Origin: Gemmatimonadota bacterium
GTDB taxonomy: Bacteria > JBHIER01 > G020348925
DNA: 64,000 nucleotides
Assembly: GCA_020348925.1 (NCBI GenBank)
Contig: CP070758.1
Coordinates: 2,020,030-2,084,029, forward strand
Direction: 5' to 3'
The position numbers were made by a program, and so were the translations under genes. How positions within the stretch are numbered: position 1 is the first letter of the stretch; each line of letters begins with the position of its first letter. Below, in pieces: positions 4,392 through 26,588 of this stretch. The notes below the pieces were generated by a model. The model searched no databases and was not told the DNA's origin. It saw only the letters and a program-made list of their open reading frames with translations.

Positions 4392-4491
4392 NNNNNNNNN
4401 NNNNNNNNNNNNNNNNNNNNNNNNNNNNNNNNNNNNNNNNNNNNNNNNNNNNNNNNNNNNNNNNNNNNNNNNNNNNNNNNNNNNNNNNNNN
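4392..4491. other. Assembly gap / contig join (100 N)
   Basis: Run of exactly 100 N; unrelated sequence on either side. Confidence 0.98.
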
Positions 4492-7800: not shown

Positions 7801-7850
7801 ATACACAAACTCAATAACGACAACACGACAAGGCAAACAGACCGCTTCAT
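4821..7850 (-). CDS. Secreted GH13 alpha-amylase with enlarged domain B, TSP3 (thrombospondin type 3) Ca-binding repeats, an Ig-like domain and a T9SS-like/FlgD C-terminal domain
   Basis: Signal peptide; MLQGFYW, MGYDPKDLYDLGE, YNHR; catalytic GYRMDAVKH, VVGEFFD, FTDNHD; DNCP..NPxQxDxDxDxxGDxCD repeats; C-terminal LSENYPNPFNPETSI...SGVYFYRI...TKRMVLMK. Confidence 0.9.
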   Translation of the reverse strand: MKRSVCLVVLSLLSLCILLSNTIQAQDFMLQGFYWDYPGTPDGKVWADTLRLKAADLADAGFTYVWLPPMSRGNSGMYSMGYDPKDLYDLGEYGGGATRFGTRADVDALVTEFNPQGLNAVADMIYNHRDGGSPEDNPSVEGWIENFEWWKAEGGDNPYPSDRFRCYIPLGSPHGFGEGTYYFKIRSHSWHARFDYMDYKVYTETNAVSWQGMPDQNESEPNGGGDCGQGNNTISLGINMLAQTDDVGGCIIDEFALTLTSSDFSGDDTLWVYLNNQGGNYSDHHIYGLWYDDLDNSPSDQDIQWAVGYQTWTDFTNLPSAQGAMDQWNFKPNGNPTQLAGDWDWPWFFYDYDQTVASTQTVLRDFTRWLWNTVGVRGYRMDAVKHFAYAFTGDLLDHLHDNGIDPGMVVGEFFDGNPWTLKSWIDNVLANMDGDTKAAISPRAFDFSLRYALEAACDQFGYDARNVFTSGMVDAAGASGFNVCTFTDNHDTRDPGQPIDNDPILAYAYILTNNQVGLPTVFYYDYYNRGLKDKIDKLIEVHRNHIYGAPNRDYLSRTGTPYTQTFTTGYATTTLFYQLSGMPSGRDVLVAINFAGEALNVKHGVNVTTMDLNIGDALVDVIGNASVSFMVVDGSGNVQFEIPARSYTVWVYSPDNDGDGRPDFIDNCPSVYNPGQENSDDDSHGDVCDNCPNDNNENQSDGDGDEIGDVCDQCEGDDATGDGDGDGICDDLDQCLGDDATGDSDGDGICDDMDQCIGDDATGDSDGDGYCADVDNCPNYYNPDQADSDGDGMGDPCDGCVEADPDVARVKWLMGLVGTATYDVTIKFLGCFNNPVTLSVTGLPFGTRRYYFNPSEVVPVSPGGSTTVQLVVQVTRGTPVGDYILTITGDDGSISHSYDVTMEVRRPPRFRGPLATKENVVPEEFVLSENYPNPFNPETSIDFGLPEQSQVRVTVYNTLGGVVEVLVDETLDSGYYRVTWDAAGLPSGVYFYRIEAGSFTETKRMVLMK
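5529..5717 (-). repeat. Three tandem 63-bp (21-aa) coding repeats DQCxGDDATGDxDGDG(I/Y)C within the TSP3 region
   Basis: DQC codons recur at 5717, 5654 and 5591 (63-bp period). Confidence 0.85.
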
Positions 7851-10995: not shown

Positions 10996-13969
10996 GTCCG
11001 TCGCCGCTCAACGGAACCGTCCCCAGAATGTGGTTTATGGTGGCCAGCACATCCAGAATATTGATGCTGCCGTCGTTGTTGACGTCCCCACGAACCCCCT
11101 CCAACCAGGAAGGACTGAAAGTGATCCCGATGTTCTCCTCCCAACCCTTGGTCACGCGCACTATCTCAGGCTCACCGGCACGACCCTCTATGGCTCCACC
11201 GCGACTCCGAGAGCCGCCCTCGGCATAGTACATCCAGTTGCGATGAAACGCCCCGTCCGGAAGAAGGGGCTTGGCGAAAAATCGGACCGCCGTCTCATCC
11301 GTGGCCCTCAGGTGAATCCAGAAATCCCCGCAAAGCCCGACCAGACTCTCGTAGTCCGGACGCTGCGTCAAGTCGAGCACAATCCGGCCGTCGGCATCGA
11401 CGGAGTCCGGATAGAACAGAAAGGGGGCGATCAGCTCATCACCAAAAGTGCTGTCGTTTTCCCCCGGCCCAAAAACGTACACCTCCAAGGGTGAGACCTC
11501 ATCGCTCATCCCCCGGTCCCGGCCTCTGTCCGGGCAAGAAGAGGACGAAACAGAACCGTTCCAGGCCGCACCGATCACAAGGGTCTGAAGAGCCGCCTCT
11601 GGCGTCTCTCCCGGTATGCTGAAGCGGACTGCCGGCCCTGCACCGGGCTCCGACTCGACGCTATCGCGCTCCGTGCTGTAAGGATCAAAATAACCCAAAT
11701 ACCCTGAACCGGATTCACTGACCGCCACAGGACCGATGAGCATCGTGTCGTTCACACCAAGCGTATCGCACGGAGATTCGAGTAAAACCTTCAGGTAATA
11801 CAGTCCACCAGCTGCCGGTCTCCAGTCGTACTCATAGGCATAGATAGTATCACCGGCTGGAAGGAGGAAGAAGGGATATTGAAACTTGGGGCCAATCGGA
11901 TGGACATCGCCGGGGAGAATACTTACACCGCCCTCATCAAGGATATCGATGTAGGCATTTCCAGGGGCCATGTCGAGATTGCTGAGATTGGTAATGGCAA
12001 CCTGGACCGGCGTGGTATAGTTCACTGAAACCGGATTGGAAACTGCGATGTGGGTGACGGCGAAGTCGCACTCGGCGTGGATAACGAAAAACTCATCGTT
12101 CTGGTCGCAGCAGGTGGAGTCCAGGGCGTCGCAGATGATGACGAGGCAGTTGTCGGAGGGGGTGCCGGGAACGGTCCAGTCATACGATCCATCGTCCTCG
12201 GTGCCTCCACTTATGGGTATGTAAAATTCGCCTCCGTCAGGGGAGTATTCGATGATGACTGTACCGCTGGTGTTTTCTGAAATCCACGTGATGATCTCCG
12301 TCTCCCCAGCCTCCCAGATCTCCCCCCCGTTGGGGGAGCTGACCTCAAGGAAGCACGGTACCTGGATCTCGATACACTGGGAGAACTCAGACGTGTTGCC
12401 TGAAGGATCCGTGGCCGTGGCCGTTATGAATTGGCCCTCGGCAATAGCGTCAGAAGGGGTGAAACTGAAACTCGCATCGCCGCCAGTGTCAGTGTATACA
12501 ATTATCCCCTCCAAAAATGTCTCCCCTTCACCGTAGCCGGAAGGATCGCATTCGGTGTTGGAGAAGAAGTCGATTCTGAATTCTGTATTCGGCGTGCTGT
12601 TGAGGTTTCCTTGAACGAGGTCCGGTGTGGCCGAGGTTAACACTGGAAAATTTTGCACATGGTTGGCACCTGCATCACCATCCCCGGCATCATTGGGTGT
12701 CACGCCGTCATCGTTCAGATCGATTCCCAGGCCACCGTTGGAGAAGACGGTATTGGAGAGAATAGCGTTACCCGTGCCGGAAGAAGACACCACACCTGCG
12801 AGCACGTTGAAGGCAATGGTATTACCTGCGGTCCCTCCAATACTGTTATCCGAGGCCTCATCATCGATCCGCACACCGTCCCCGCCATTTCCCAGGGCCC
12901 CTGTACCGTAGCTGTCGACACCGATGAAGTTGCCCAGCACCAGATTATCCGTGGTGCCGCTATTGGCTAAGTAGACGCCTGCGAAGCCGTTGCCTGAGAT
13001 AACGTTGGTCGATTCCATCGAAGTTCCGCCGATGGTGTTGTTCGAGGCCTGCTGCTGGATAACGACGCCCGCGTTTGAGTTACCGATCGGTGATGTGCCG
13101 GTAACGTCAGTGCCGATAAAGTTGCCCTGCACGACATTGTTTGAGGCGGTGCTTTCAATAATCAGGACGCCGATGGCGTCGTTGCCTGAAATGACATTGT
13201 GAGCTCCGGGATTCGTTCCGCCGATGGTGTTGTTTGCCCCTCCGAAGATAGAGATCCCAAAGAGGGCGTTGCCCCGGTCGGCGGTTCCGCTGATGTCGGT
13301 GCCGATGAGGTTGCCCTGCACCACATTGCCGGTGACACCTGCACCTATCATGAGGACGCCCATCTGGGCGTTGCCTGATAGAAGGTTACGTGCCGCAGGC
13401 GTTGTTCCCCCGACGGTGTTGTTGCTGCTCCAAATCGATACGCCTTCCATGCCGTTGCCTGAAGCAGATATGCCGCTGAAATCCGTTCCGATGAAGTTGC
13501 CTTCGATGACATTTCCACCGCCGGTGTGTATCCAGATCCCCTCGGCGCTAAAATCTTTGATCACCAGCCCTCGCACCGTACTGTTCCCGGCAACGATCTC
13601 CAGGCCCATGGCATCGCCGGCACTGCTTCCGTTCAGGACGATCTTCAATACCGTGTTCAGACCCTGGCCGACAGGATTTGTATTGGGACTGGCTCCGGTC
13701 TGTGTATAGCCGTCTATTATGACCGGATCGGTGATGGGGGGAAGGATAGATGAGGGCTGGATGGTATGCACCAAGCCAGCGGGGGGAATGTTGAACTCGA
13801 TAAGATCCGATCCCGGATTGCGGTTGGCGTCCTCGATGGCCTGTCTCAGTGAACCTGGCCCGCTGTCCTCTGCGTTCGTGACCGTGATGCTCATGGCCGG
13901 AAGCGAACCGGGCACTACCACGAACGCCAAGAGATACACAAGACCTACGATAAGCGATATGAGACGCAT
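10996..13969 (-). CDS. Large secreted protein: right-handed beta-helix repeats, Ig-like domains and a dockerin-like module; 3' end lost in gap
   Basis: ATG at 13969 after a GGAGG RBS; signal peptide; VTNAEDSGPGSLRQAI; repeated GN(F/L)IGTD.SGT...GN..GV.I....NNTIGGT....RNVISGN; GNTSEFS; C-terminal GDVNNDGSINILDVLATINHILG. Confidence 0.85.
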
Positions 13970-14191
13970 CTCAGAGTCCCTCCTTTCCTTCCTCACGGAT
14001 ATATTGAGTGTGTGTCAAAAAGTCCTCAGCCTTCGAATACCAGCTGACTTCGAAATTTTAAACGTTTTTAAATTCTTGAGGAATATCCATACTCTTTTTG
14101 CTGGAAGTTTTACACGAATGTCTGATTCTGGTTGATTCTCGTATATGCAGATGTGACGATGTCTTGGCTGATAGCCTGACAGCGTCATCTA

Positions 14192-14220
14192 ATTATAGCA
14201 TATAAACAATTGTTTGTCAA
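14192..14220 (-). promoter_or_regulatory. Consensus sigma70 promoter with extended -10 for the beta-helix gene
   Basis: TTGACA-N17-TATAAT with TG one base before the -10 hexamer (TGCTATAAT). Confidence 0.75.
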
Positions 14221-14548
14221 GACATTTTTGGCACAAAATCACTTTCTGAAAAGGGCGGCTCATAGTGCCAGTATTGTTAGAGGCATCACGGGACATACGA
14301 ACGCGATATTTTTCCAATCGGTTCTATGAATTTTTTCTTGCTTTTTTCGGCAAAGTGAGATAGTTTGCATGAGACGATCGCGAGTTGTGATCTGGTGGAT
14401 AGGTGGCAAGGACCATGAAGAGTGCAGCGCTCTTCTCAATAATAATCGCAAGAATCCGATACCGAAAAAAGATGTGTGCGGCGATGATAAAATGATTGTT
14501 CCCTTGATCGCACAATACATCGCATTTGCTGACTTTTGTGGTAATAAT

Positions 14549-14577
14549 CTTTACGAAATCTCGAACGTTTCGTAAAG
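14549..14577. repeat. Perfect 10-bp inverted repeat just upstream of the kinase RBS
   Basis: ctttacgaaa-N9-tttcgtaaag. Confidence 0.5.
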
Positions 14578-14594
14578 GTAAATGGAGAAAATAA

Positions 14595-17588
14595 ATGGAT
14601 AATTTCATCGGTCAAACGATATCCCACTATCAAATCATCGAGAAACTCGGCGAAGGCGGCATGGGGGTCGTCTATAAGGCTGAGGACACCAAGCTCCGGC
14701 GCACCGTTGCCCTGAAATTTCTACCGGCAGTTATGACCCGTGACCCGGAGGCTAAGGAGCGCTTCATCCAGGAGGCACGGGCGGCCTCGGCCATGGACCA
14801 TTCCAATATCTGTACCATTCATGAAATCGGCGAGACCGAAGATGGGCATATGTTCATCTGTATGGCCTGCTATGAGGGACAGACCCTCAAGGACAAAATC
14901 AAAGACGGACCGTTGGAGCTTGGAGAGGCCGTGAATATCGCTGTGCAGGCTGCGCAAGGTCTGGCCAAAGCTCACGATCAGGGAATTGCCCACCGGGACA
15001 TCAAGCCGGCCAACATTTTCATCACCGAAGATAACGAGGTGAAAATCGTCGATTTCGGTCTGGCTAAATTGGCGGGTAACATGGGGCTCACGAAGACCGG
15101 AACGACTGTGGGTACGGTGCCCTACATGTCACCCGAACAGATCCGCGGCCAGGGAGTTGATCACCGAACCGACATCTGGTCTCTGGGCGCGGTGTTGTAT
15201 GAGATGGTCACCGGGGAGATGGCCTTCAAAGGGGAATACGAGCAGGCGGTGATGTATTCTATCATGAGTGAGGAGCCGGAGCCGATCGTAAATTTCCGCT
15301 CGGATGTGCCACAGGATCTGGAATGGGTTATCCAGAAGGCGCTCCAGAAGGATGTCAGCGAGCGATATCAGGATGTGGCTGAAATGCTGATCGATCTGAG
15401 GAGGTTCGCCCAGGGTGCGGTGGTCGAAGGTGCGATCCGGCCGCCCAGGGTATTGGAGGAGGAGATCACAAAAAAATTGTTGAAGAGGATTGTGTTGCCT
15501 GTGGGTATTGTCCTCTTTTTCGTCATCGCCGTTGTCCTGGTCCGACCGCTTCTTCTCCAGCAGGTACTGGTTTCGGAGCCGAAGCCCATCGCCGTGATCA
15601 GCTTTGTCAACCAGACGGGGGACAGCACCTATGATTATCTCCAAACGGTCATTCCGAATTTATTGATCACGAGCCTTGAACAATCACCCAATATCCGTGT
15701 CGCCACCTGGGAGCGCATGTATGACCTCCTGAAACAGATCGGCAAGGAGGATAGGGATATCATTGACAGGGAACTGGGATTTGAAATCTGCCGCATGGAT
15801 GGTATCGATGTCATCGTCCTGGGCAGCTTCACCCGAACGGGCGATATATTCGCGACTGATGTGAAGGTGTTGGATGTGACAACGAAAGATCTGCTGAAGG
15901 GTGCCACGTTCAAAGGCGAGGGGGTTGCCAGCATTCTCAAAACACAGATCGATGAACTCACGAGGGAGATCTCTCGAGGTGTGGGCATTTCCGATCTTGC
16001 GTTCGAAGAAGCCGGAACCGGGATCGCCGATATGACAACTTCCTCAATGGAGGCGTACAACTATTTCTTGAGGGGTAAAGAGAATTGCGAAAAATTCTAT
16101 TACGATGATGCCCTGCCATTTCTCGAAAAGAGTGTGGATCTCGATTCGACCTTCGCTGTGGCATACCTCTATCTTGGCTGGGCATACGATTGGTTGCACG
16201 ATAACGACGCCAGAAAGAACGCCTACGAGAAGGCGAAAAAATTCTCCCAAAAAGCAACAGACAAGGAAAGACTCTATATCGAGGCGACGTACGCCGGGGA
16301 GATTGAAAACGATCGGGAAAAGAAATATCATGTCCTCAAACAGATTACCCAGAAATATCCGAAGGAAAAGCGAGCGCATCTCTTATTGGCGGAGTATTAC
16401 AGAACACAGAGAGTGCTGGCTGAGGCCATACTTGAGTTCCATAAGGCCCTGGAACTCGATCCCAATTACGGATTTGCCATGAATCAGCTGGCTTACACGT
16501 ACGCTGATAGTGGTGACTTTGAGAAGGCCATCGAATATTTTGAGAGGTACGCATCCGTATCTCCCGGGGACGCAAATCCATTCGATTCAATGGCCGAGCT
16601 CTATGTGCGCATGGGAAAGCTCGATGAGGCGATAGTACAATACAACAAGGCCTTGGACATAAAACCGGACTTCGGTTCGGATTGGAGTATCGCCTACATC
16701 TATGCCTTGAAGGAAGAGTACTCCGAGGTCATGACGTGGATCAATCAGTTTTTATCCATGGCCCCTTCGCCGGGGATACGAGTACAGGGATATGTGTGGA
16801 AGGGGCTGTATCACTGCTTACTGGGGAGTTTCGACGAGTCCCTGAGTGATCTTGAAAGAGCGGTGGAACTGGCCGACGTCATAGGGAACGAGGCGTGGAA
16901 AGCCCATGCGGACAGGACAAAAGCGTGGATTTATTATGAGAAGGGTGAGTTTGAGCGCGGTCGGAGATTCATTCGAAATTGGCTCGATTTCTATTCAGAA
17001 TACTATCCACCATACATACCATATTTTACGGCCAGTCATAAAACGTATCTTGGTTTGGCTGATATAAAGCAGGGGCGAACCGATTCGGCATGGGTCAGGC
17101 TGGAAGATATAAAATCTCTGTTGCCCGACATAGCTCCGAAGGTGAAGGGAAATATAACGTTCGGTTATGACGTGCTTTACGGAGAGTACTTGCTCGCTTC
17201 AGACTCCCTCGAAAAAGCCATCGCTACCGGCGAAAAAGCATCGCCTCTGGGAAAGCTTCCGCTGATGCACCCATGGAATCTCCTCCCCTATAATGTGCCC
17301 TTCCGGAAAGATGTATTGGCGCGGGCATATCAACGGACGGGAGAGATCGACGAAGCCATCTCCGAGTACGAGCGTTTGATCACAGTTGACCCGAACAGCG
17401 TGGAGCGGCCGCTCATTCACCCCGTGTATCACTATCATTTAGCCAATCTGTATTCGGAGAAGGGCCTGTCAGACAAAGCCGTTTCCCAGTACGAGCAGTT
17501 CCTCGACATCTGGAAGGATGCCGATGAAGATCTGCCAGAACTGATAGACGCCAAGGCGAGATTGGCGAGGTTGAGGGAGGCGGGTTGA
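14595..17588 (+). CDS. Hanks-type Ser/Thr protein kinase with a TM helix, TolB-N-like domain and multiple TPRs
   Basis: LGEGGMGVVY, VALK, HRDIKPANI, DFG, YMSPEQ, DIWSLG; hydrophobic IVLPVGIVLFFVIAVVLV; IAVISFVNQTGD; TPR-like helical repeats. Confidence 0.93.
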   Translation: MDNFIGQTISHYQIIEKLGEGGMGVVYKAEDTKLRRTVALKFLPAVMTRDPEAKERFIQEARAASAMDHSNICTIHEIGETEDGHMFICMACYEGQTLKDKIKDGPLELGEAVNIAVQAAQGLAKAHDQGIAHRDIKPANIFITEDNEVKIVDFGLAKLAGNMGLTKTGTTVGTVPYMSPEQIRGQGVDHRTDIWSLGAVLYEMVTGEMAFKGEYEQAVMYSIMSEEPEPIVNFRSDVPQDLEWVIQKALQKDVSERYQDVAEMLIDLRRFAQGAVVEGAIRPPRVLEEEITKKLLKRIVLPVGIVLFFVIAVVLVRPLLLQQVLVSEPKPIAVISFVNQTGDSTYDYLQTVIPNLLITSLEQSPNIRVATWERMYDLLKQIGKEDRDIIDRELGFEICRMDGIDVIVLGSFTRTGDIFATDVKVLDVTTKDLLKGATFKGEGVASILKTQIDELTREISRGVGISDLAFEEAGTGIADMTTSSMEAYNYFLRGKENCEKFYYDDALPFLEKSVDLDSTFAVAYLYLGWAYDWLHDNDARKNAYEKAKKFSQKATDKERLYIEATYAGEIENDREKKYHVLKQITQKYPKEKRAHLLLAEYYRTQRVLAEAILEFHKALELDPNYGFAMNQLAYTYADSGDFEKAIEYFERYASVSPGDANPFDSMAELYVRMGKLDEAIVQYNKALDIKPDFGSDWSIAYIYALKEEYSEVMTWINQFLSMAPSPGIRVQGYVWKGLYHCLLGSFDESLSDLERAVELADVIGNEAWKAHADRTKAWIYYEKGEFERGRRFIRNWLDFYSEYYPPYIPYFTASHKTYLGLADIKQGRTDSAWVRLEDIKSLLPDIAPKVKGNITFGYDVLYGEYLLASDSLEKAIATGEKASPLGKLPLMHPWNLLPYNVPFRKDVLARAYQRTGEIDEAISEYERLITVDPNSVERPLIHPVYHYHLANLYSEKGLSDKAVSQYEQFLDIWKDADEDLPELIDAKARLARLREAG

Positions 17589-17646
17589 TATCAAGCTTTT
17601 CGAAAAACTTTACTAATCTGTATAATTCCTTGATAAAATAAAAGTT

Positions 17647-17731
17647 GTCATTCGTCCGAAGGCAGGAACCTCCTCGATTTGCTGATCACACACACTCCAG
17701 TAAGGAGATTCCGGGGAAAAACCGGCATGAC
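17647..17731. repeat. Degenerate GTCATT...ATGAC REP/MITE-like palindromic element
   Basis: gtcattcgtccgaaggcaggaacctcc...ggagattccggggaaaaaccggcatgac. Confidence 0.5.
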
Positions 17732-17873
17732 GTAGTAATTACCGTGAAATGTGTCGTGTAACAAAGTACAAAACCAAAAATCACCATAAGTCAATAAATA
17801 TTTTAAGGTTACGCTGCATTTAAATTATTTTATGACCGAAACTGAGCGATCTTTAGACAAAAGTAACGGAGTG

Positions 17874-17959
17874 GTCATTCTGAACGGAGCAAGGCCAAGT
17901 GAAGAATCTCACTCACAAGGTGAGAGATGCTTCGCCCGATAAATCAAGCTCAGAATGAC
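17874..17959. repeat. GTCATTCTGA...GAAGAATCTC / GAGATGCTTCG...TCAGAATGAC REP/MITE-like element
   Basis: 10-bp terminal inverted repeat GTCATTCTGA/TCAGAATGAC plus an inner GAAGAATCTC/GAGATGCTTC stem. Confidence 0.65.
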
Positions 17960-18117
17960 ATCTCAGTCATAGTGTTTGCCAAGAATTACTCAATTTAGGT
18001 ACGAATAATTCAGGCGAAACTTTGAAAGTGTCGTGAAGTTCAATGAGAATAGATGGCGGAATACATGGACTGCCAGCGAGATTGAAGGACCGGAGCCTTT
18101 TCTCTCTTTCGATACAT

Positions 18118-19128
18118 TCAGACACCCTGGAGCATGTGCAGTTGCCACAGTTCCCGGCTGCTCGTATGAAGAAAGGGCGAAATGGCCAACCTCCCTGTTT
18201 TCCCGATGCTTTTTTCCAAATATCTCATCTCCTCGAAGTTCTCTCGTATCTCCGGGTCCGCAGAGGGTTCGAATCCGGCCTCCCGTAGCATGAGTATCCC
18301 CTTGGCTCTGACGGACAACTCCAGGTGAATCCGCAACAGACACAGCATATCGGCCACAATCTCTCCGGAAAACCGGTCTTTGAGGGAATCCAGGTACCTC
18401 CCAATTTTGGTCTCCGAGATGTTTCCCGTGGTGATCATGTCGAGAAGAAGGACATCCGTATCAAGACCCACCTCCAGCCAGAATTGGAGGGATTTTTCGC
18501 TCCGGGAGAAAACGACAACGATGACCAGGGGAAGCAGAATTAACTGCAAGACGGTTGTCACAACCGGCGAGAAGATGAAGTTGTTAAAGAATCCATGGAT
18601 TACAATCGCTACGATGATTCCCGGGAGAAAGATGTGGAATTTTTCAGTGAATCCCCGATCGGCTGCATTCTTTGACATGATCCCCATGGCTGCCGTTGTC
18701 CCACCATGCATCACCGCCGTTCCCAGTCCTCGAAGGATCCAAAGGAATATATTCGCATCCTGCAAATACTTGAGATAATATATGTTTTCGACAAGGGCGA
18801 AGCCGGCCCCGATGGCGAAGCCGTAGATGGCCGCATCCACCAGAAATCCGATCCTTTTCGATTTGATTAAAAAGACAATATAGACTGCCTTGAATAGCTC
18901 CTCAATAACCGGGGCTCCACCCTTGGAGTATGATGAGAAATCGACGCCCAAAAGATTTATCAAGAGACTGTTCATGAACAGGGATCCCACTGCTGTAACG
19001 CAACCAATGAGGATCGTCAGCAGGATCGAGCGAAATTTCACCAGCTTATAGCTGTCCAATACTACAAAAGCCACAAGGAAATAGAAAACGGGCAGGAGAC
19101 TTACTGACGCTCTGACGATGAAATCCAC
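18118..19128 (-). CDS. PrsW-family intramembrane glutamic/metallo protease with a C-terminal soluble extension
   Basis: Several TM helices; PVIEELFK (EExxK), GFALVEN (FxxxE), VMHGG and IVIHGFFN (HxxxN) motifs. Confidence 0.88.
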   Translation of the reverse strand: MDFIVRASVSLLPVFYFLVAFVVLDSYKLVKFRSILLTILIGCVTAVGSLFMNSLLINLLGVDFSSYSKGGAPVIEELFKAVYIVFLIKSKRIGFLVDAAIYGFAIGAGFALVENIYYLKYLQDANIFLWILRGLGTAVMHGGTTAAMGIMSKNAADRGFTEKFHIFLPGIIVAIVIHGFFNNFIFSPVVTTVLQLILLPLVIVVVFSRSEKSLQFWLEVGLDTDVLLLDMITTGNISETKIGRYLDSLKDRFSGEIVADMLCLLRIHLELSVRAKGILMLREAGFEPSADPEIRENFEEMRYLEKSIGKTGRLAISPFLHTSSRELWQLHMLQGV

Positions 19129-19249
19129 GGTAGGAGCAAAGAGAGTGAAACTCTTGATTTACAGGTTTACATTAGTACGCTCACCGGTGTACCAACACAG
19201 TGCCAGGCTGGACGTATTATTGAGACACTTCTCCTTTTGAAACAAAATA

Positions 19250-22200
19250 CTATCTCAATATTTTAAGGGAAATCATAAACTCTTTCTCTATAGAATGATG
19301 TTTCTCGAAGGCCAATGCATATCCCAGAGAGAGTGTCGACGGAAGGTTAGAGAATATGACGAGCTGCATATCTATCTGACCACCGGCATTCATTACGGAT
19401 CGTCTGTAATCTTTGCTCGTCAGCTCGAAGAGATCGTCAGGATCCACGTTCGTCTTGATTCCGGAGGTGAAAACGGCCATTCGGGCCCAGTTACAGTACA
19501 GGACAGGAAATCCGAATCGCCGGAATCGCAGAGGCGGAAAGGTCCATTCGAGCATCATTTTGGCGTAATTTGTACCACCGATGGCGTTGAGCTCGACACC
19601 GGGAAAGCTGTAATACTCCCTGTAACGCTTGATGGACAAATAATCGACCCAGTTGTTGCCAAACCCTCCGAAATAAAAGTTGGCAAAGGGTTCGTCCCGA
19701 TCACCGTGAGCATATCCGAAGGAGCTTCTCAACCAGAGTGCCATGTGCTCGATGGGGAGCAAAAACCCGTAATCGAGGTTTGCGTTGACATGAGGGTAGA
19801 ATTTTTCGTTGACGTAGGTGTTGAAGGAGTTTATTTGCCCAGTCACCCCTTTCTCGGAATCGACCCCACCCAATGTTGTCCGCTTATTGGAGTAATTCAA
19901 ATTTGCCCGCAGTGTCACAAACTTGTCGTAGGAGACCGCAACGTTCTGGAAATCCGGGAGCCGTTCGAGTCCGCCGTAACCGGCCACATTGAAGGAATAA
20001 TCCAGCATCTTCGGCTTCTCGTAGATGAGGTAACTTTGATAATTCAGGGACAACGAATAGCCTTTCCGACTCTTCTTGGTGGGGCCGAAAAGGTCGTAGA
20101 AATCCGCTCCGTTGTATGAGGCCGAGATATCCCACGGCCACTTGCTATAGTTAAAGGTGGTGTGGAATCGTTCGTCACCCGGTAATTTCGAATAGGGCGA
20201 ATAGGATGCTGTGAGATTGAAGTCGTTCATCCTGATGGGATCGGCGAAATTCATGCGGATCCCAAGGGCCACATAATCACTGTGTCCGTCAACGTACGTG
20301 TCCCTGTATCCCTCAACAACGGGATAGACGGAGGCAAGTTTTATGTTCCGAAAAGGACTGTAGGGACCGCTAAAGGTTGTCAGGGAATCGATATTGATGG
20401 ACGCCGGTGATCCGGCCATCCACTCCGTGACGATGGGGTGTCGGTCCACAACGGCCTGCCCCAGGTACCGTATGGCACTCACGTCCTCCAGCGGTTGCGC
20501 GGAGATCATGACCGGTAGAAATCCTTTCCCTGTGTACCGGAAGACGATGAGAGAGTCGCCCGGGAGAGGGACCGGTCGAAAGAAACCGGTCTCGCAATTT
20601 GTCAGGATGTCCATGTGTTCGGTTTCGAAATCGTATCTCCAGACGTTTGAGACACCCGTGTAGTATGAGGTTCCGAGGAGATAGCGACCGTCGTCAGTGA
20701 AGACAAAATTTTGAGGGGCATTTTCCTCGAATTCGTACAGCACGTCGTAGGAGGTGTCCTTGCTCAGGAGGTTTTCGATGTTCATTCTGATGAGACGCTG
20801 CCTGCCGGTGACCTCGATGATGGACGCCGTCAGGTACTTTCCGTCCGGGGAGATATCGAGATCGAAGATGTTCTTTCCGTAGGGCAAGACGAAAATATCC
20901 TCCCACGTCTCATAAGGAGATGGAATCCGAACCACTATGGATCGCCCGTTGTGGTGTTGCACACCCCATAACGATTTGTCCGCACGATTGAAGGCCAGAT
21001 CCCCGGTCCGACAGTCCTTGATCAGCCTTTTCGACGTTCCGGTCTGAAGGTCGACGACCCGAATATCCCGCCAGCGAAAAACGTTATCGGTCGTGAAGAA
21101 GATGTTCCGTGTGTCCGGATCGTAGGCCAGGGACGAGACGTAGTACAAGGCAGGCCCGGGAACATTGCAGATCTTCTCGATCCTGCCGGTGTCGATATCG
21201 ATGGAGGAGATGTTGGCCAGTTGGCCGGGGTAGAGGGTGGCTGCATACAGTTTTCTCGTCACTGGATCGTAGAATGAGCGTGAGACCGAGCCGAGGGCGC
21301 GCTCGGACAGAGGCCGATACTGCGTCACAGGATTGGCATGAATCGAGTCGAGATTTGTCCGTTGCCACTGATGCTCCCACTCGACCCAAGCGACCCACTC
21401 GTCATCCAGGGATCGCCCGTACACCTTCTTGAACTGGGAGGTAAAATATCGTTTGCTCTCACCAGTTCGATCGAACCACTCCAGCAGTTTCTCAGGCCCA
21501 TAGTGATAGGCCAGATAGCTCACGAAACGGGTCCCGTAGAGGTAAGAGTTTTGGCCGACCTGAAAATCGATGGTCGTGCCCTCGGATTCGAGCCCCACGA
21601 TATCGTAGAAGTAGCTGCTGTCCCGAACCATGGTTCTGAAAACCATCTCATCATAACCACCCAGGGCGCGTCCGAGACCTCCAGACATCCACGTCTCCAA
21701 AAAGACGGCGATCCCTTCATGGTACCACCGCGGACAGTACCACCGGGGACTCGTCAGATAACTGTAAAACATCGAGAGGGGATAGTCGGCGATGGGCAAG
21801 ACCTTTCCGAAGAATATCGTACGATAGAATTCATCGTTCGGTGAAGATTTGTCTGTGGCCACCACGTGGACAAGCTCATGGTGCATGAGCCAGTTCATTC
21901 GCTCATTGGACGGGGCCGTTTCATACACCTGCTCAAAAGGTTCGATACCGAGGGTGATGTAGTTCCAGGGCATCGTTATCGTCCCGCCGTGTCCAATATC
22001 TCCAAAATCATGCAGCAGAATGAGCACTTTTTCCGAAGGCGTATAGTCAAAAAGCTCCCTGTGAAACTTCATTGAGTTTTCGAAACTCCGGGCCAGATGG
22101 GCAATGATGTAGTAACTTTCCTCGAAGTACACCAAAAGCAGAAACTCTGTCTCCAGCGACTGAAGCTGCACTGAGGCGGCGGGCATTGAGATGAGGAATA

Positions 22201-22258
22201 AAAAAATGCAACTTATAGAAAAAACAAAACGTTTCACGAGTGATTCCCTCCCTTTCAT
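19250..22258 (-). CDS. Secreted/outer-membrane protein: gluzincin (HEXXH...E) peptidase domain, TolB-like beta-propeller and C-terminal beta-barrel (Omp85/BamA-like by inference)
   Basis: Signal peptide; HHELVH followed by WYHEGIAVF; propeller-like blades (LAYDPDTR, LDISPDGK, FVFTDDGR); the last ~350 aa are aromatic amphipathic beta-strands with a YFGGFGN loop. Confidence 0.7.
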   Translation of the reverse strand: MKGRESLVKRFVFSISCIFLFLISMPAASVQLQSLETEFLLLVYFEESYYIIAHLARSFENSMKFHRELFDYTPSEKVLILLHDFGDIGHGGTITMPWNYITLGIEPFEQVYETAPSNERMNWLMHHELVHVVATDKSSPNDEFYRTIFFGKVLPIADYPLSMFYSYLTSPRWYCPRWYHEGIAVFLETWMSGGLGRALGGYDEMVFRTMVRDSSYFYDIVGLESEGTTIDFQVGQNSYLYGTRFVSYLAYHYGPEKLLEWFDRTGESKRYFTSQFKKVYGRSLDDEWVAWVEWEHQWQRTNLDSIHANPVTQYRPLSERALGSVSRSFYDPVTRKLYAATLYPGQLANISSIDIDTGRIEKICNVPGPALYYVSSLAYDPDTRNIFFTTDNVFRWRDIRVVDLQTGTSKRLIKDCRTGDLAFNRADKSLWGVQHHNGRSIVVRIPSPYETWEDIFVLPYGKNIFDLDISPDGKYLTASIIEVTGRQRLIRMNIENLLSKDTSYDVLYEFEENAPQNFVFTDDGRYLLGTSYYTGVSNVWRYDFETEHMDILTNCETGFFRPVPLPGDSLIVFRYTGKGFLPVMISAQPLEDVSAIRYLGQAVVDRHPIVTEWMAGSPASINIDSLTTFSGPYSPFRNIKLASVYPVVEGYRDTYVDGHSDYVALGIRMNFADPIRMNDFNLTASYSPYSKLPGDERFHTTFNYSKWPWDISASYNGADFYDLFGPTKKSRKGYSLSLNYQSYLIYEKPKMLDYSFNVAGYGGLERLPDFQNVAVSYDKFVTLRANLNYSNKRTTLGGVDSEKGVTGQINSFNTYVNEKFYPHVNANLDYGFLLPIEHMALWLRSSFGYAHGDRDEPFANFYFGGFGNNWVDYLSIKRYREYYSFPGVELNAIGGTNYAKMMLEWTFPPLRFRRFGFPVLYCNWARMAVFTSGIKTNVDPDDLFELTSKDYRRSVMNAGGQIDMQLVIFSNLPSTLSLGYALAFEKHHSIEKEFMISLKILR

Positions 22259-22295
22259 TCCACATAGTTCTCTTGGAATTTATCACCTGTGACCA

Positions 22296-22324
22296 AACAT
22301 AAGATGCTTTCTTCTCGTTGTCAA
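22296..22324 (-). promoter_or_regulatory. Putative sigma70 promoter of the peptidase-barrel gene
   Basis: TTGACA-N17-TATGTT immediately downstream of the terminator hairpin. Confidence 0.55.
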
Positions 22325-22334
22325 GTTTTTTGTT

Positions 22335-22372
22335 ATAAAAAGAAAGAGATGCCGAGCCTCGGCATCTCTTTC
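22335..22372 (-). terminator. Intrinsic terminator of the repeat-protein gene
   Basis: 14-bp perfect stem gaaagagatgccga/tcggcatctctttc with a 3-nt loop, followed by TTTTTA on the minus strand. Confidence 0.85.
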
Positions 22373-22404
22373 CCCTCTACTGTGTATGTCAACGACCGCC
22401 TGTC

Positions 22405-25400
22405 TTAGTGTTGATACTCCAGCTGGAAGGCCTGCAGATCGGAAACTAAGTTCTCAAGAGCTCGGATTTCCTCTCTCTGCAGAGTGGGGATCACCTGCTT
22501 CCTGAACCCATCAAACTCAGCCACAAGGTTCTCCAAAGCCTGGATCTGCTCGCGCTCCAGAGCCGGGATGACCCGCTTGTCCAAAGTCCGCAACTCAGCG
22601 CCCATATGTTCAAGGGCTTGGATCTGCTCACGCTCCAGGGCCGGGATGACCTGCTTCTGAAAGCCGTCATACTCAGTGACCAGGTTCTGCAAGGCCAGGA
22701 TCACTTGCTTCTCGAGCACCCGCAGCTCCTGCCGCTCCAGGGCCGGAATGACCTGCCGGTCCAAAGTGCGGAACTCACCGGCCATATGCTCAAGGGCCTG
22801 GATCTGCTCGCGCTCCAGGGCCGGGATGACCTGCTTCTGGAAGCCATGAAACTCAGTCACAAGGCTCTGCAGGGCTTGAATCTCTTGCCTCTGGAGGACC
22901 ACTATCTCTTGCCTCTCAAGAGCGGGAATGATCTCTCGCTCCAGGGCCGGGATCACCTGCTTCTGCAGGGCCGGAATGACCTGCCGCTCCAGGGCCGGAA
23001 TGACCTGCCGGTCCAGTGTCCGGAACTCACCGGCCATGTGTTCGAGGGCACGAATCTCCTCTTTCTCCAGGGCCGGGATCACCTGCTTCTGAAAACCATG
23101 AAAGGCAAGTGTCAGGTTCTCTAGGGCAGGGATGATCTCTTTCTCCAGGGCCGGGATCACCTGCTTCTGCAGGGCCAGAATGACCTGCTTCTGCAATGCG
23201 GGGATGATCTCTTTCTCCAGAGCTTGAATTTCCTGCTTCTCCAGGGCTGGAATGACCTGTCGCTCCAGGGTCGGGAGAACCTCTCTCTGCAAGGTCAGAA
23301 TGACCTGCCTCTGGAGGGCCGGGATGACCTGCTTGTCCAGGGTGTTCAGCTCAGCGCCCATATGTTCGAGGGCACGAATCTCCTCTTTCTCGAGGGCCGG
23401 GATCACCTGCTTCTGGAAACCATCGTACTCTTTAACCAGGCTCTCCAGAGCCGGGATGACCTCTCTCTCCAGGGCCGGGATCACCTGCTTGAACAAGGCA
23501 GGTAAGACCTCTTTTTCCAGGGCCAGAATCACCTGCTTCTCATAAGCTGGGATCACTTGCCTCTTTAGGGTGCTTAACTCAACCGCCATATGCTCAAGAG
23601 CCTGAATCTGTTCTCTCTCCAGAGCCGGGATCACCTGTTTCTGGAAACCATCAAACTCCGTGACCAAACTCTCCAACGCCTGAACCACTTCCTTTTCGAG
23701 GACCCGCAGCTCCTGGCGCTCAAAAGCAGGGATCACCTGCTTGTCCAGGGTGCGCAATTCAACCGCCATACTTTCGAGAGCCCTGATTTCCTCTCTCTCC
23801 AGCGCCGGGATGACCTGCCTCTGAAAACCGTGAAACTCAGTGACAAAACCCTGCAACACCTGAATCTCTTGCTTCTGGAGAACCAGCATCTCTTGCCGCT
23901 CCAAGGCCGGGATGACCTCTCTCTGAAGCGCCGGGATCACTTGTCTCTCCAGGGCCGGAATGATTTGCCGCTCCAGGGCCGGAATGACCTGCTTGTCCAG
24001 GGTAGTCAACTCAGCGGCCATGTGCTCAAGAGCACGGACTTCCTCTCTCTCTAAGGCCGGGATAACCTGCTTCTGAAAGCCATGAAACTCTTTGACCAAA
24101 TTCTCCAGGGCCGGGATGACCTCCCGCTGCAAGGCCAAGATCACCTGCTTTTCCAGAGCCGGGATGACCTCCCGCTCCAGGGCCGGAATGACCTCTCTCT
24201 CCAGCGCCGGGATCATCTCCCTCTCCAGAGCCGGAATAACCTGCCGCTCCAAGGCAGGGATCACCTGCTTCTGCAGGGCTGGAATTATCTGCCGCTCCAG
24301 AGCCGGAATGACCTGCTTGTCCAGGGTGTTCAGTTCTGCGGCCATATGTTCCAGAGCCCGGATTTCCTCTTTCTCCAGAGCCGGGATCACCTGCTTCTGG
24401 AACCCGTCAAATTCAACCACCACGTTCTCAAGAGCAGAAACGACCTCTTTCTGCAGGGCCAGAATGACCTGCTTCTCCAGGGCCGGGATGACCTCTCTCT
24501 GCAGGGCCAGAATGACCTGCTTCTCATAAGCCGGGATCACCTGCTTCTCCAGGGTGCTCAGCTCAGCGGCCATATGTTCCAGAGCCTGGATCTGCTCACG
24601 CTCCAGAGCCGGGATCACCTGCTTCTGGAAGCCATCAAACTCTTTGACCAGGTTCTCCAACGCCCGAATTTCTTCCCTTTCGAGAACCATTATTTCCTGC
24701 CTCTCAAGAGCGGGAATGACCTGTCGTTCCAAGGCCGGAATGACCTGCCGCTCCAAGGCCGGAATGACCTGCCGCTCTAAAGTAGGAATGATCTGCTTGT
24801 CTAAGGTGTTCAGCTCAGCAGCCATGCGTTCGAGAGCTTGGATCTGCTCGCGCTCCAGTGCAGGAATCACCTGTTTCTTGAAACCATCAAACTCCTTGAC
24901 CAGGTTTTCCAGGGCCGGGAGGACCTCTCTCTGCAGAGCCGGGATGACCTGCTTATTCAAAGCGGGAATGACCTCTTTCTCCAGGGCAGGGATCATCTCT
25001 TTCTCCAGGGCCGGAATAACCTGCCTGTCCAAGGTAGGAACAACCTCTTTCTGGAGTGCCGGCAGGACCTCTCTCTGCAGGGCAGGAATAACCTCTCTCT
25101 GCAGCGCAGGAATGACCTGCTTGTCCAATGTGCTCAATTCAGCGGCCATATGTTCGAGGGCTTGAATCTGCTCTTTTTCCAGCGCGGGCATCACCTGCCT
25201 TTTGAAGCCATCGAACTCCTTAACCAGGTTCTCCAAAGCCGGAATAACCTCTTTCTCCAAGGCCGGAATGACCTGTTTTTCCAAAGCCGGGATGACCTCT
25301 TTCTCCAAAGTCAGCATCACCTGCTTCTCGAATGTGGGGACCACGAGCTTTTCCAGTTTCCGCAACTGAGCGGTTGTCTGCTCGAGGGCCTGAATTTGCT

Positions 25401-25812
25401 CTTTCTCAAGAACAGGAAGCACCTGCTTCCGAAAACCATCAAACTCTGTCACGAGATTCTCTAACGCACGCAGCTCCTCCTTCTCTAAGACGGGGGTCAC
25501 CTGCCGTCCCAAGTGCTGCAATCTGGCAATCAAGTTCGCCAGTTGACGACCATCCATCTCCCCCAATTGGGGCTTCGTCGTATTTTCAAAGGCCTCAAAC
25601 TGCGCCGCCAAATTAAGGAGTTGTTGGCCTTCGAGGACCACGTCACTTTCTGTAATCTGATCCGCCCGGTATTTCTTGACTTTTCCGATCGTACCCCGTA
25701 CGTCTTCACCGGGCGTAGGTGGATAGAAGAACGCAAAATAAGCGATGACAAGAACTGCGATGACTATGCCACCAGCTAAAATTTTCTTCATCAAACCACT
25801 GCGCTTTTCCAT
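22405..25812 (-). CDS. Membrane-anchored hierarchical tandem-repeat protein (VIPAL[EQ][KR][EQ] octads plus 13 x ~44-aa modules); function unknown
   Basis: 1135-aa open frame after a GGAGG RBS; N-terminal hydrophobic helix ILAGGIVIAVLVIAYFAFFY then PP..GEDVRGTIGKVKKYRADQI; ~1030 aa of Pro-punctuated amphipathic repeats with synonymous third-position variation. Confidence 0.9.
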   Translation of the reverse strand: MEKRSGLMKKILAGGIVIAVLVIAYFAFFYPPTPGEDVRGTIGKVKKYRADQITESDVVLEGQQLLNLAAQFEAFENTTKPQLGEMDGRQLANLIARLQHLGRQVTPVLEKEELRALENLVTEFDGFRKQVLPVLEKEQIQALEQTTAQLRKLEKLVVPTFEKQVMLTLEKEVIPALEKQVIPALEKEVIPALENLVKEFDGFKRQVMPALEKEQIQALEHMAAELSTLDKQVIPALQREVIPALQREVLPALQKEVVPTLDRQVIPALEKEMIPALEKEVIPALNKQVIPALQREVLPALENLVKEFDGFKKQVIPALEREQIQALERMAAELNTLDKQIIPTLERQVIPALERQVIPALERQVIPALERQEIMVLEREEIRALENLVKEFDGFQKQVIPALEREQIQALEHMAAELSTLEKQVIPAYEKQVILALQREVIPALEKQVILALQKEVVSALENVVVEFDGFQKQVIPALEKEEIRALEHMAAELNTLDKQVIPALERQIIPALQKQVIPALERQVIPALEREMIPALEREVIPALEREVIPALEKQVILALQREVIPALENLVKEFHGFQKQVIPALEREEVRALEHMAAELTTLDKQVIPALERQIIPALERQVIPALQREVIPALERQEMLVLQKQEIQVLQGFVTEFHGFQRQVIPALEREEIRALESMAVELRTLDKQVIPAFERQELRVLEKEVVQALESLVTEFDGFQKQVIPALEREQIQALEHMAVELSTLKRQVIPAYEKQVILALEKEVLPALFKQVIPALEREVIPALESLVKEYDGFQKQVIPALEKEEIRALEHMGAELNTLDKQVIPALQRQVILTLQREVLPTLERQVIPALEKQEIQALEKEIIPALQKQVILALQKQVIPALEKEIIPALENLTLAFHGFQKQVIPALEKEEIRALEHMAGEFRTLDRQVIPALERQVIPALQKQVIPALEREIIPALERQEIVVLQRQEIQALQSLVTEFHGFQKQVIPALEREQIQALEHMAGEFRTLDRQVIPALERQELRVLEKQVILALQNLVTEYDGFQKQVIPALEREQIQALEHMGAELRTLDKRVIPALEREQIQALENLVAEFDGFRKQVIPTLQREEIRALENLVSDLQAFQLEYQH

Positions 25813-25870
25813 TGCTTTACCCTCCCTTCAAAGGTTTCAAACTTCCGACTACCAACCATCAACCATACAG

Positions 25871-25903
25871 CTAACGGATCAGACGAACCATACTCACCTC
25901 CTT
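25871..25903 (-). promoter_or_regulatory. Leader minigene MVRLIR* (25871-25891) with a perfect Shine-Dalgarno AAGGAGGTGA (25894-25903)
   Basis: Minus strand reads AAGGAGGTGA-GT-ATG GTT CGT CTG ATC CGT TAG, ending 58 nt before the repeat-gene start. Confidence 0.5.
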
Positions 25904-26041
25904 TTTTCATTGTCCAAATCTTTCAAGATCGTTAACTCATTACGTTGTCTTATCAAAGTACAAATCAAACTCGAAATAGTTGGTCTTTTTTTATACTTTT
26001 CCAATCATCCGGTATCCCGCCTGACAATAATAGGGCGGTCA

Positions 26042-26141
26042 NNNNNNNNNNNNNNNNNNNNNNNNNNNNNNNNNNNNNNNNNNNNNNNNNNNNNNNNNNN
26101 NNNNNNNNNNNNNNNNNNNNNNNNNNNNNNNNNNNNNNNNN
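26042..26141. other. Assembly gap / contig join (100 N)
   Basis: Run of exactly 100 N. Confidence 0.98.
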
Positions 26142-26429
26142 AGGATATGAATTTGGACCTATAATAACCCCAGAAACAATAGAGAAACATTTAAGAAACA
26201 CTTGAGATACGATAAAGAAACAATTTGATATGTATATTTTCTATACATCTCAAGTATTTTACCATCTCCCCGGGCCTTCTTTGATTTTCTGTTCGCCTTC
26301 CTTTAATCGAAAAAGAGCAAGTCTGAAGCAGATGAGTGGAACCGACAGGAAAGGTTAGAACTTTATAATTTTATAATTAATTATACAACATAGAGTTTCG
26401 AGACTAATATAGTAATCACATTAAATCTT

Positions 26430-26457
26430 AGTTCGTATAATATATATTATGTAAACA
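26430..26457 (+). other. dif-like XerC/XerD recombination site
   Basis: AGTTCGTATAA-TATATA-TTATGTAAACA: 11-6-11 layout close to E. coli dif (GGTGCGCATAA-TGTATA-TTATGTTAAAT), in AT-rich intergenic DNA. Confidence 0.78.
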
Positions 26458-26588
26458 TATTAATGATGTATCTTTTATTGTGTATATTCCAGAAGTCCAA
26501 ATCATACCATGATTAATCCTGATGGGACGTATAATTTTTGAATATTACGAGAAAATGGGTCTCTTGAGGGACGTAATACAGTTTCTGT

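Follow-up and report, generated by a model that had tools for sequence, protein, structure and literature searches.

The repeat-protein locus

The window analysed here, a stretch of 64,000 nucleotides from a Gemmatimonadota bacterium (GenBank assembly GCA_020348925.1, contig CP070758.1, positions 2,020,030 to 2,084,029 of the forward strand), carries three genes in a row on its minus strand, in the order also found in relatives of this locus. The first (22405..25812, stop codon included) encodes the repeat protein of 1135 amino acids (aa) that is the subject of this report. It is followed by a gene that we call c1 (19250..22258), whose 1002-aa product combines a signal peptide, an HExxH zinc-protease-like domain, PD40/TolB-like propellers and an Omp85-like barrel, and by a gene for a 336-aa intramembrane protease of the PrsW family (18118..19128; Pfam E=8.4e-24). 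The open reading frame (ORF) of the repeat protein is uninterrupted and begins with an ATG, with a GGAGG 7 nt upstream in the ribosome-binding site region (25813..25830). Its parse yields a conserved N-terminal anchor domain, delimited by alignment (aa 1-65; 25618..25812) and containing a transmembrane helix (aa 11-32; 25717..25782), a non-repeat linker (aa 66-104; 25501..25617) and a repeat array that runs almost to the C-terminus (aa 105-1132; 22417..25500). Glu, Leu, Gln, Ala, Val and Ile dominate the composition, which includes 66 Pro and neither Cys nor Trp.

A script parse of the protein accounts for the repeat region without remainder. Thirteen modules of 44 aa, starting at residues 113, 189, 297, 381, 457, 565, 649, 709, 785, 893, 977, 1037 and 1089, all carry the marker [EA][FY][DH]GF..Q, and the marker of the second half (ALEHMAAEL..L) is present in 12 of the 13, the last module being degenerate. 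Successive modules are separated by 4, 8, 5, 4, 8, 5, 2, 4, 8, 5, 2 and 1 octads of consensus VIPALE[KR][EQ], with zero leftover residues. Each 18-residue half of a module is in turn an octad-like xxxALExx followed by a 10-residue insert (VKEFDGFQKQ or AAELxTLDKQ), so that the whole region may be read as a single array of octads with decads inserted in pairs. At the highest level the array consists of super-unit A (aa 113-380, 268 aa; 24673..25476), with the layout module-4-module-8-module-5; super-unit B (aa 381-708, 328 aa; 23689..24672), which adds a further module and two octads; super-unit C (aa 709-1036, 328 aa; 22705..23688), laid out as B; and a terminal partial unit (aa 1037-1135; 22405..22704) made of a module, one octad, the degenerate module and the residues YQH. 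Gapless self-comparison of the protein peaks at an offset of 328 aa, with an identity of 0.52 for aa and 0.59 for nt, and further protein peaks occur at 268 aa (0.46) and 596 aa (0.56); the best offset outside these three reaches 0.38 for aa and 0.50 for nt.

An earlier note on this DNA, made from the sequence alone, had proposed the three-level code of octad, 44-aa module and super-unit with 13 modules. The parse bears the proposal out residue by residue, reproducing exactly the octad counts given there and the variants said to recur in register: VIPAYEKQ opens two of the 4-octad blocks, E[IM]xVL closes all three 5-octad blocks and ELRVLEK closes both 2-octad blocks. The super-unit, put at about 270-330 aa in three copies, measures 268, 328 and 328 aa; TRF gives 24-bp arrays and higher periods; and a composition count agrees with its statement that Cys and Trp are lacking. 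Its range (22405-25510) covered the repeat part and left out the first 104 residues, so that the conserved membrane anchor was overlooked, as was the operon with PrsW and a metalloprotease/PD40/outer-membrane-barrel protein, which points to envelope signalling. ORFs of 93-232 aa that mirror the array on the opposite strand (22606..25464, plus), with translations rich in LQGRDDL and similar strings, are by-products of the codon pattern of the repeats and not genes.

A family defined by its anchor and its operon

The anchor domain comprises a short basic tail, the transmembrane helix and a juxtamembrane motif, YPP..GTIG..KYR.DQI..DVVLEG, which has its counterpart in relatives as a transmembrane helix followed by FFYPP..GTIG..KKYR.EQI..DV.LEG. 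Thirteen columns are invariant in an alignment of eight sequences (A2: Y25, F26, F28, P31, P32, G40, T41, I42, G43, K47, Y48, R49 and Q52), and G40, G43 and Q52 remain invariant over 25 sequences (A1). An exhaustive search of a representative library returned 323 matches of two classes: proteins of 60-575 aa aligned at residues ~6-100 only, and periodic proteins aligned to the repeat region. The latter, built from arrays of VIPALEPP, VKPALDHD, DPVVEKKA and the like, were rejected as homologues, being unrelated periodic proteins. Scanning a single genome for each species, we confirmed 102 relatives and retained 80 of their loci (numbered with the prefix L below); the anchor is present in 77 of the 151 stored proteins and in 58 of 78 locus ORFs. 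All relatives are encoded by metagenome-assembled genomes (MAGs) of the Fibrobacteres-Chlorobi-Bacteroidetes (FCB) group and allied lineages, namely Krumholzibacteriota, Ignavibacteriota, Bacteroidota, KSB1, Latescibacterota, Eisenbacteria, Calditrichota, Zixibacteria, Fibrobacteraceae, Acidobacteriota and others. The genome of the window is not among these loci, and the best anchor identities to the window protein range from 43 to 68%.

The family is thus one defined by its anchor and not by its repeats; it is unnamed and is not covered by the copies of Pfam and NCBIfam used here. Its members range from ~200 to 1135 aa, the window protein being the longest seen (the largest locus ORF has 915 aa and the largest stored representative 575 aa), and the window protein combines the anchor motif, short tandem repeats with a longer super-period and a gene placed directly 5' of c1. 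Whole-protein matches in Pfam, NCBIfam and the PDB sequences (RAD51D_N, RNase_3_N, CorA and a type III secretion system translocon) were discarded as repeat-driven noise, with no stretch of the Pfam rows passing alone and the NCBIfam row lying far under its cut-off. A homologous-protein search gave no match with the whole 1135-aa protein and, with aa 1-112, no protein of near length and one shorter protein annotated 'hypothetical protein'; the protein atlas gave no usable match for the anchor.

Behind the shared anchor the repeat units differ completely between lineages, with lengths of 9, 12, 18 or 27 aa and longer periods of 108-273 aa. They include a 12-aa unit, A[ST]LQEKAxxFxR (L018, L022, L025, L037 and L058), a 9-aa unit, LKSPELQAA (L014), a unit of ~27 aa beginning ERSPVWSQPYG (L017, L050 and L073) and an MgtE_N-like unit of ~110-150 aa (L001 and L002). 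Pfam MgtE_N (PF03448) is matched at E <= 0.01 by 8 of the 20 relatives scanned, 7 of them above the gathering score and L048 at 9e-27, and the same Pfam scan gave no MgtE_N match for the window protein. Relatives with MgtE_N repeats share the anchor and the operon position with the window protein but use a unit of ~12 aa, in contrast to its Pro-containing unit of 8 aa. Nested repetition is a trait of the family: in many relatives long periods are superimposed on short ones, for example 12 with 272-273 aa (five proteins), 12 with 202, 24 with 214 and 32 with 160 aa. The 272-273-aa super-repeats, on a 12-aa base unit, occur in Krumholzibacteriota and unclassified MAGs (L025, L042, L048, L051 and L055), and their closeness to the 268-aa super-unit of the window may be a coincidence or may reflect a constraint on length. 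Relatives with 12-aa repeats are also punctuated by motifs such as ..ENFDKF.., ..EAFDK[LM].. and ..DVFEKM.., which resemble the KEFDGF of the window modules (L018 at aa ~150-175 and ~492-515; also L025, L037, L055 and L058), and such punctuation modules may share an origin throughout the family despite the differing units.

When every ORF from the 80 loci and from the window was clustered and annotated with Pfam, a recurrent gene order emerged across phyla of the FCB group: a GAF-SpoIIE phosphatase, an RsbW-like kinase (HATPase_c_2), a STAS protein, an extracytoplasmic function (ECF) sigma factor, a single-pass RsiW-like anti-sigma factor of ~255 aa, the family gene, c1 (~1000 aa) and PrsW. 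Pfam confirms the phosphatase, the kinase, the STAS protein, the sigma factor and PrsW, and a profile of the ~255-aa neighbour matches the cytoplasmic domain of Bacillus subtilis RsiW (PDB 5wuq_C) at E=2.3e-10. The family gene is followed immediately by c1 in 50 of the 51 loci with enough sequence (39 from ORF calls and 11 from tblastn; L077 is the exception), and c1 immediately by PrsW in 27 of 36. In 27 of 49 loci an ECF sigma gene is found no more than 1.5 kb upstream, a count that is too low because antisense ORFs displaced some of the calls.

The full partner-switching set of phosphatase, kinase and STAS protein precedes the ECF sigma gene and the membrane anti-sigma gene at L003, L005-L007, L011, L030, L032, L056 and others. 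An ECF/anti-sigma pair joined to such a set is an unusual double layer of control. Our literature searches found no description of the operon or of the family. PrsW, STAS and PD40 are all absent from the main text of the ECF reclassification paper (PMC7826278), and the part of its supplement available to us names PrsW for Firmicutes systems only and never PD40; the rest of that supplement may still describe the sigma group.

The two downstream genes encode proteins that both look like active proteases, judging by their conserved residues. HExxH is present in 50 of 50 c1 sequences, and H127, E128, H131 and E181 are at least 95% conserved; the protein atlas places c1 with PD40/TolB-like and Omp85/D15 proteins, and no single Pfam model spans the whole of it. 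Across phyla c1 is 55-62% identical, much more conserved than the repeat protein. In PrsW, residues E76, E77, K80, H141, H178 and N182 are invariant in 35 of 35 sequences. The Pfam PrsW match covers residues 34-204 only of the 336-aa homologue, which also has a conserved C-terminal region of ~130 aa with invariant residues out to P318 in the same 35 sequences. The c1 and PrsW proteins of the window are nearest to those of a Latescibacterota MAG, at 62% and 57% identity, respectively, which would fit a candidate phylum of the FCB group as the source.

On which side of the membrane do the repeats lie? An RsiW-like domain of ~80 aa stands ahead of the anchor in 8 of the 77 anchor-bearing stored proteins, and anti-sigma fusions also occur at L046, L030 and L031. 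At L030 the fusion comes immediately after the sigma gene and ahead of c1, with no separate anti-sigma gene. These fusions place the repeats outside the cytoplasm and show that the anchor and repeats together are able to make up the outer half of an anti-sigma factor. An N-terminal cytoplasmic anti-sigma domain is lacking in the window protein itself; only 10 residues precede its transmembrane helix, and four of these are basic, in agreement with extracytoplasmic repeats. The window protein is a single-pass inner-membrane protein with a short basic cytoplasmic tail and ~1030 extracytoplasmic repeat residues that are predicted to be helical. The separate anti-sigma factors were also considered as members of the anchor family and rejected: 2 of 36 match the anchor profile, one being the L030 fusion and the other (L043) a mis-sorted family member. 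Neither match is genuine, so the separate anti-sigma factors and the family share only a short G-T motif. This motif, G-[TAS]-[MLI], stands 12-17 residues past the transmembrane helix of the anti-sigma factors (G in 33 of 34, T in 23 of 34) and resembles the GTIG of the family.

Elsewhere in the window we note five scaffold gaps of 100 N, one of them 230 bp upstream of the repeat-protein gene (26042..26141) and the other four at 4392, 10896, 44646 and 62688. Between the first of these gaps and a leucyl-tRNA synthetase gene lie ~450 bp of AT-rich non-coding DNA (region 25813..26588). A 1009-aa protein (4821..7850, minus) carries a C-terminal sorting domain of the type IX secretion system (Por_Secre_tail) and an alpha-amylase-like region, which fits an FCB-group host. 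A 997-aa Ser/Thr protein kinase with TPR repeats (14595..17588, plus) is convergent with the PrsW gene, and 10 of the 80 loci, or 11 with the window, have kinase homologues (ORF cluster c9) close to the operon. Promoter-like sites (8 vs 5.7 +/- 2.5 in shuffles) and terminator-like sites (5 vs 9.0 +/- 3.5) do not exceed the shuffled level.

A possible input arm of a PrsW-type switch

From the synteny and the fusions we lean towards a functional link between the window protein and a PrsW-type module of regulated proteolysis. The PrsW/RsiW/RasP pathway is described in PMC10202637. The operon described here resembles the B. subtilis sigma-W/RsiW/PrsW system in bringing an ECF sigma factor, a single-pass RsiW-like anti-sigma factor and a PrsW-family protease together in one operon. 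It differs from it in two extra conserved envelope genes, those for the repeat protein and c1, in the partner-switching genes upstream, in its diderm FCB-group hosts and, at the window, in a family member that lacks an anti-sigma domain. By analogy with the Bacillus system, we tentatively propose a more exact mechanism, in which the protein would form the periplasmic input arm of the switch, as either sensor or substrate. The anchor would hold the repeat protein next to the anti-sigma factor and PrsW; the repeat array would report the state of the envelope, or would be consumed by the outer-membrane metalloprotease c1 together with PrsW; and removal of the repeat protein would expose the anti-sigma factor. 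A predicted complex of PrsW with the anchor scored 0.31, the mark being 0.32.

Several observations weigh against this proposal. Synteny and fusions argue for a functional link but cannot separate an input (sensor or substrate) from an output (a member of the regulon). PrsW is not adjacent to c1 in 9 of the 36 loci. A tblastn search of the window found no homologue of the sigma factor, the anti-sigma factor, the STAS protein or RsbW, a result that does not imply their absence from the genome, and the sigma link in this organism consequently rests on the relatives. No frame is coding in the 229 bp that separate the gene from the scaffold gap (26042..26141), which occupies the position where relatives have the sigma and anti-sigma genes. 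The likeness between the GTIG of the anchor and the motif of the separate anti-sigma factors is short. Finally, the repeat sequences are wholly different between lineages and hence a poor fit with a single specific ligand.

It is also conceivable, though we think it rather unlikely, that the protein is a structural component of the envelope, a TolA/TonB-like helical spacer or spring reaching from the inner membrane to c1, and that it is made as an output of the sigma factor with no part in its control. TolA and TonB have an N-terminal membrane anchor, a long repetitive periplasmic region, a C-terminal globular domain and TolQR or ExbBD partners. The window protein recalls them, by features and not by any sequence match, in its anchor and its long, repetitive and predicted-helical periplasmic region, and its nearly universal partner is an outer-membrane protein bearing TolB-like PD40 propellers. 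That c1 is far more conserved than the repeats would likewise suit a spacer under little sequence constraint. However, the window protein has no separate C-terminal globular domain, its repeats reaching residue 1132 of 1135, and no TolQR- or ExbBD-like genes are found among the recurrent annotated neighbour clusters, the part of the genomes that was searched. The range of lengths from ~200 to 1135 aa implies no fixed span, and the anti-sigma fusions would be puzzling if the protein were a purely structural output.

Fold, age and significance of the repeat array

The fold of the array was addressed with AlphaFold2 (AF2) on super-unit B (aa 381-708), using the other two super-units as the alignment. 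The best of five models reached a predicted local distance difference test score (pLDDT) of 73.6 and a predicted template modelling score of 0.60, the pLDDT of the other four being 41-49. It consists of long helices (2-94, 101-151, 153-202 and 209-327), interrupted halfway through the 8-octad block and, in two of the modules, at the central octad. The fold is predicted, from this one moderate model of five, to be helical, probably with turns at the modules. A full-length single-sequence AF2 model was unusable (pLDDT 41), and a Foldseek comparison of the super-unit model with the PDB gave no match at E <= 0.001, the best being at 0.098. The module 18-mers have a hydrophobic moment that peaks at 106 degrees and amounts to 0.40-0.46 at 100-106 degrees, like ordinary bundle helices. 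In the octad blocks the moment is 0.06 at 100 degrees, 0.48 at 90 degrees and 0.60 at 44-45 degrees, so that a straight alpha-helix built of octads would lack amphipathic character. Over the repeat region the net charge is -50. The claims of the earlier note on this point survive in part: a mostly helical fold is predicted with moderate confidence, and the amphipathic character ascribed to the helices holds for the 18-residue halves of the modules and not for the octad blocks. The helical solenoid, fibre and molecular ruler also suggested there are candidates among which the models obtained do not discriminate.

The lipid-binding belt suggested in the same note, in the manner of the Pro-punctuated amphipathic helices of exchangeable apolipoproteins (ApoA-I, ApoA-IV and ApoE), fares worse, and we regard it as very unlikely. 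Like the window protein, these apolipoproteins are built of Pro-punctuated tandem helical repeats; Pro recurs every 8 residues here in a region predicted to be helical, the module halves are amphipathic, and a sensor of misplaced lipid in the envelope might suit the operon. Yet the periods of the window protein are 8, 18 and 44 aa instead of 11 and 22, the octads are not amphipathic at 100 degrees, and repeats without Pro are used by relatives. No apolipoprotein family is among the eight Pfam rows at E <= 0.1, and Perilipin_2, for which the cut-off is 30.1 bits, scored only 14.5 and had no stretch that passed. Bacterial ice nucleation proteins, which lie on the cell surface, offer another comparison in that they too are nested arrays built from an octapeptide. 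PMC3445048 gives their periods as 8, 16 and 48 residues, and the AlphaFold model reported in PMC9418140 folds the 16-residue repeats into a beta-solenoid with Thr and Tyr facing outward. Unlike them, the repeats of the window protein are rich in Glu, Leu, Gln and Ala, are predicted to be helical and are anchored at the inner membrane.

The history of the array can be read from its copies. Super-units B and C are 77% identical in aa and 78% in nt without gaps, and super-unit A falls short of their layout by exactly one module and two octads (60 aa). Octads at matching positions have a DNA identity of 0.776, compared with 0.685 for other octad pairs, a difference that none of 2000 label permutations equalled; the remaining two super-unit comparisons of octad position gave 4 and 0 of 2000 as high. 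Modules show only a slight positional effect (0.75 vs 0.73). A super-unit of ~328 aa was duplicated en bloc, with one copy differing by 60 aa. The synonymous divergence (dS) between super-units is 0.98-1.9, the nonsynonymous divergence (dN) 0.13-0.17 and their ratio, omega, 0.08-0.16; the 44 canonical octads are encoded by 42 distinct 24-mers, and the longest exact DNA repeat in the gene is 36 nt. In addition, a 66-aa fragment from another sample (P0003) is 80% identical to the C-terminus and retains the ending of module, one octad and degenerate module, being the only one of the 151 stored proteins to have octads and the module marker together.

The level of synonymous change, together with an omega of ~0.1, the permutation result, the position of the gene within a gap-free stretch (10996..26041) and the P0003 fragment, leads us to conclude that the array is real, old and under purifying selection, which has since kept all copies of the super-unit free of insertions and deletions. 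The earlier note, which took the synonymous divergence between copies as evidence against an assembly artefact, is accordingly right on this point. The possibility that the array is an assembly artefact or a non-functional expanded repeat, which the five scaffold gaps, one of them 230 bp 5' of the gene, and the long mirror ORFs might invite, can be given almost no credence in view of the intact frame, the conserved N-terminal domain and synteny, the distinct octad sequences and the independent fragment.

Returning to the input arm of a PrsW-type switch, we may speculate further, although we hold this version to be improbable, that the repeat protein and c1 together constitute a so far undescribed device of FCB-group bacteria that spans the envelope and feeds an RsiW/PrsW-type switch. 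The register-encoded periplasmic array would act in it like a proteolytic fuse or a strain gauge. Turns would be formed by the 44-aa modules, as the one AF2 model hints, and the lengths of the helices in a defined bundle would be fixed by the 4-8-5-2 octad counts; consumption or deformation of this bundle by the outer-membrane metalloprotease could then time the release of the sigma factor.

What is new here is a PrsW/RsiW-type module with two added conserved envelope parts, of which the window gene represents the most elaborate repeat member. To our knowledge, what triggers the site-1 cleavage of anti-sigma factors by PrsW-type proteases is still unclear, even in Bacillus. The operon, found across poorly studied phyla including Bacteroidota, Ignavibacteriota, Krumholzibacteriota, Latescibacterota, KSB1, Calditrichota, Zixibacteria and others, contributes two further conserved components outside the cytoplasm, which are candidates for the missing PrsW input, and it defines a protein family and a conserved domain beyond the coverage of the Pfam and NCBIfam copies used. 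The repeat grammar of the window protein, free of insertions and deletions through saturating synonymous change, is well suited to asking whether the number and order of repeats, in addition to their sequence, are themselves under selection.

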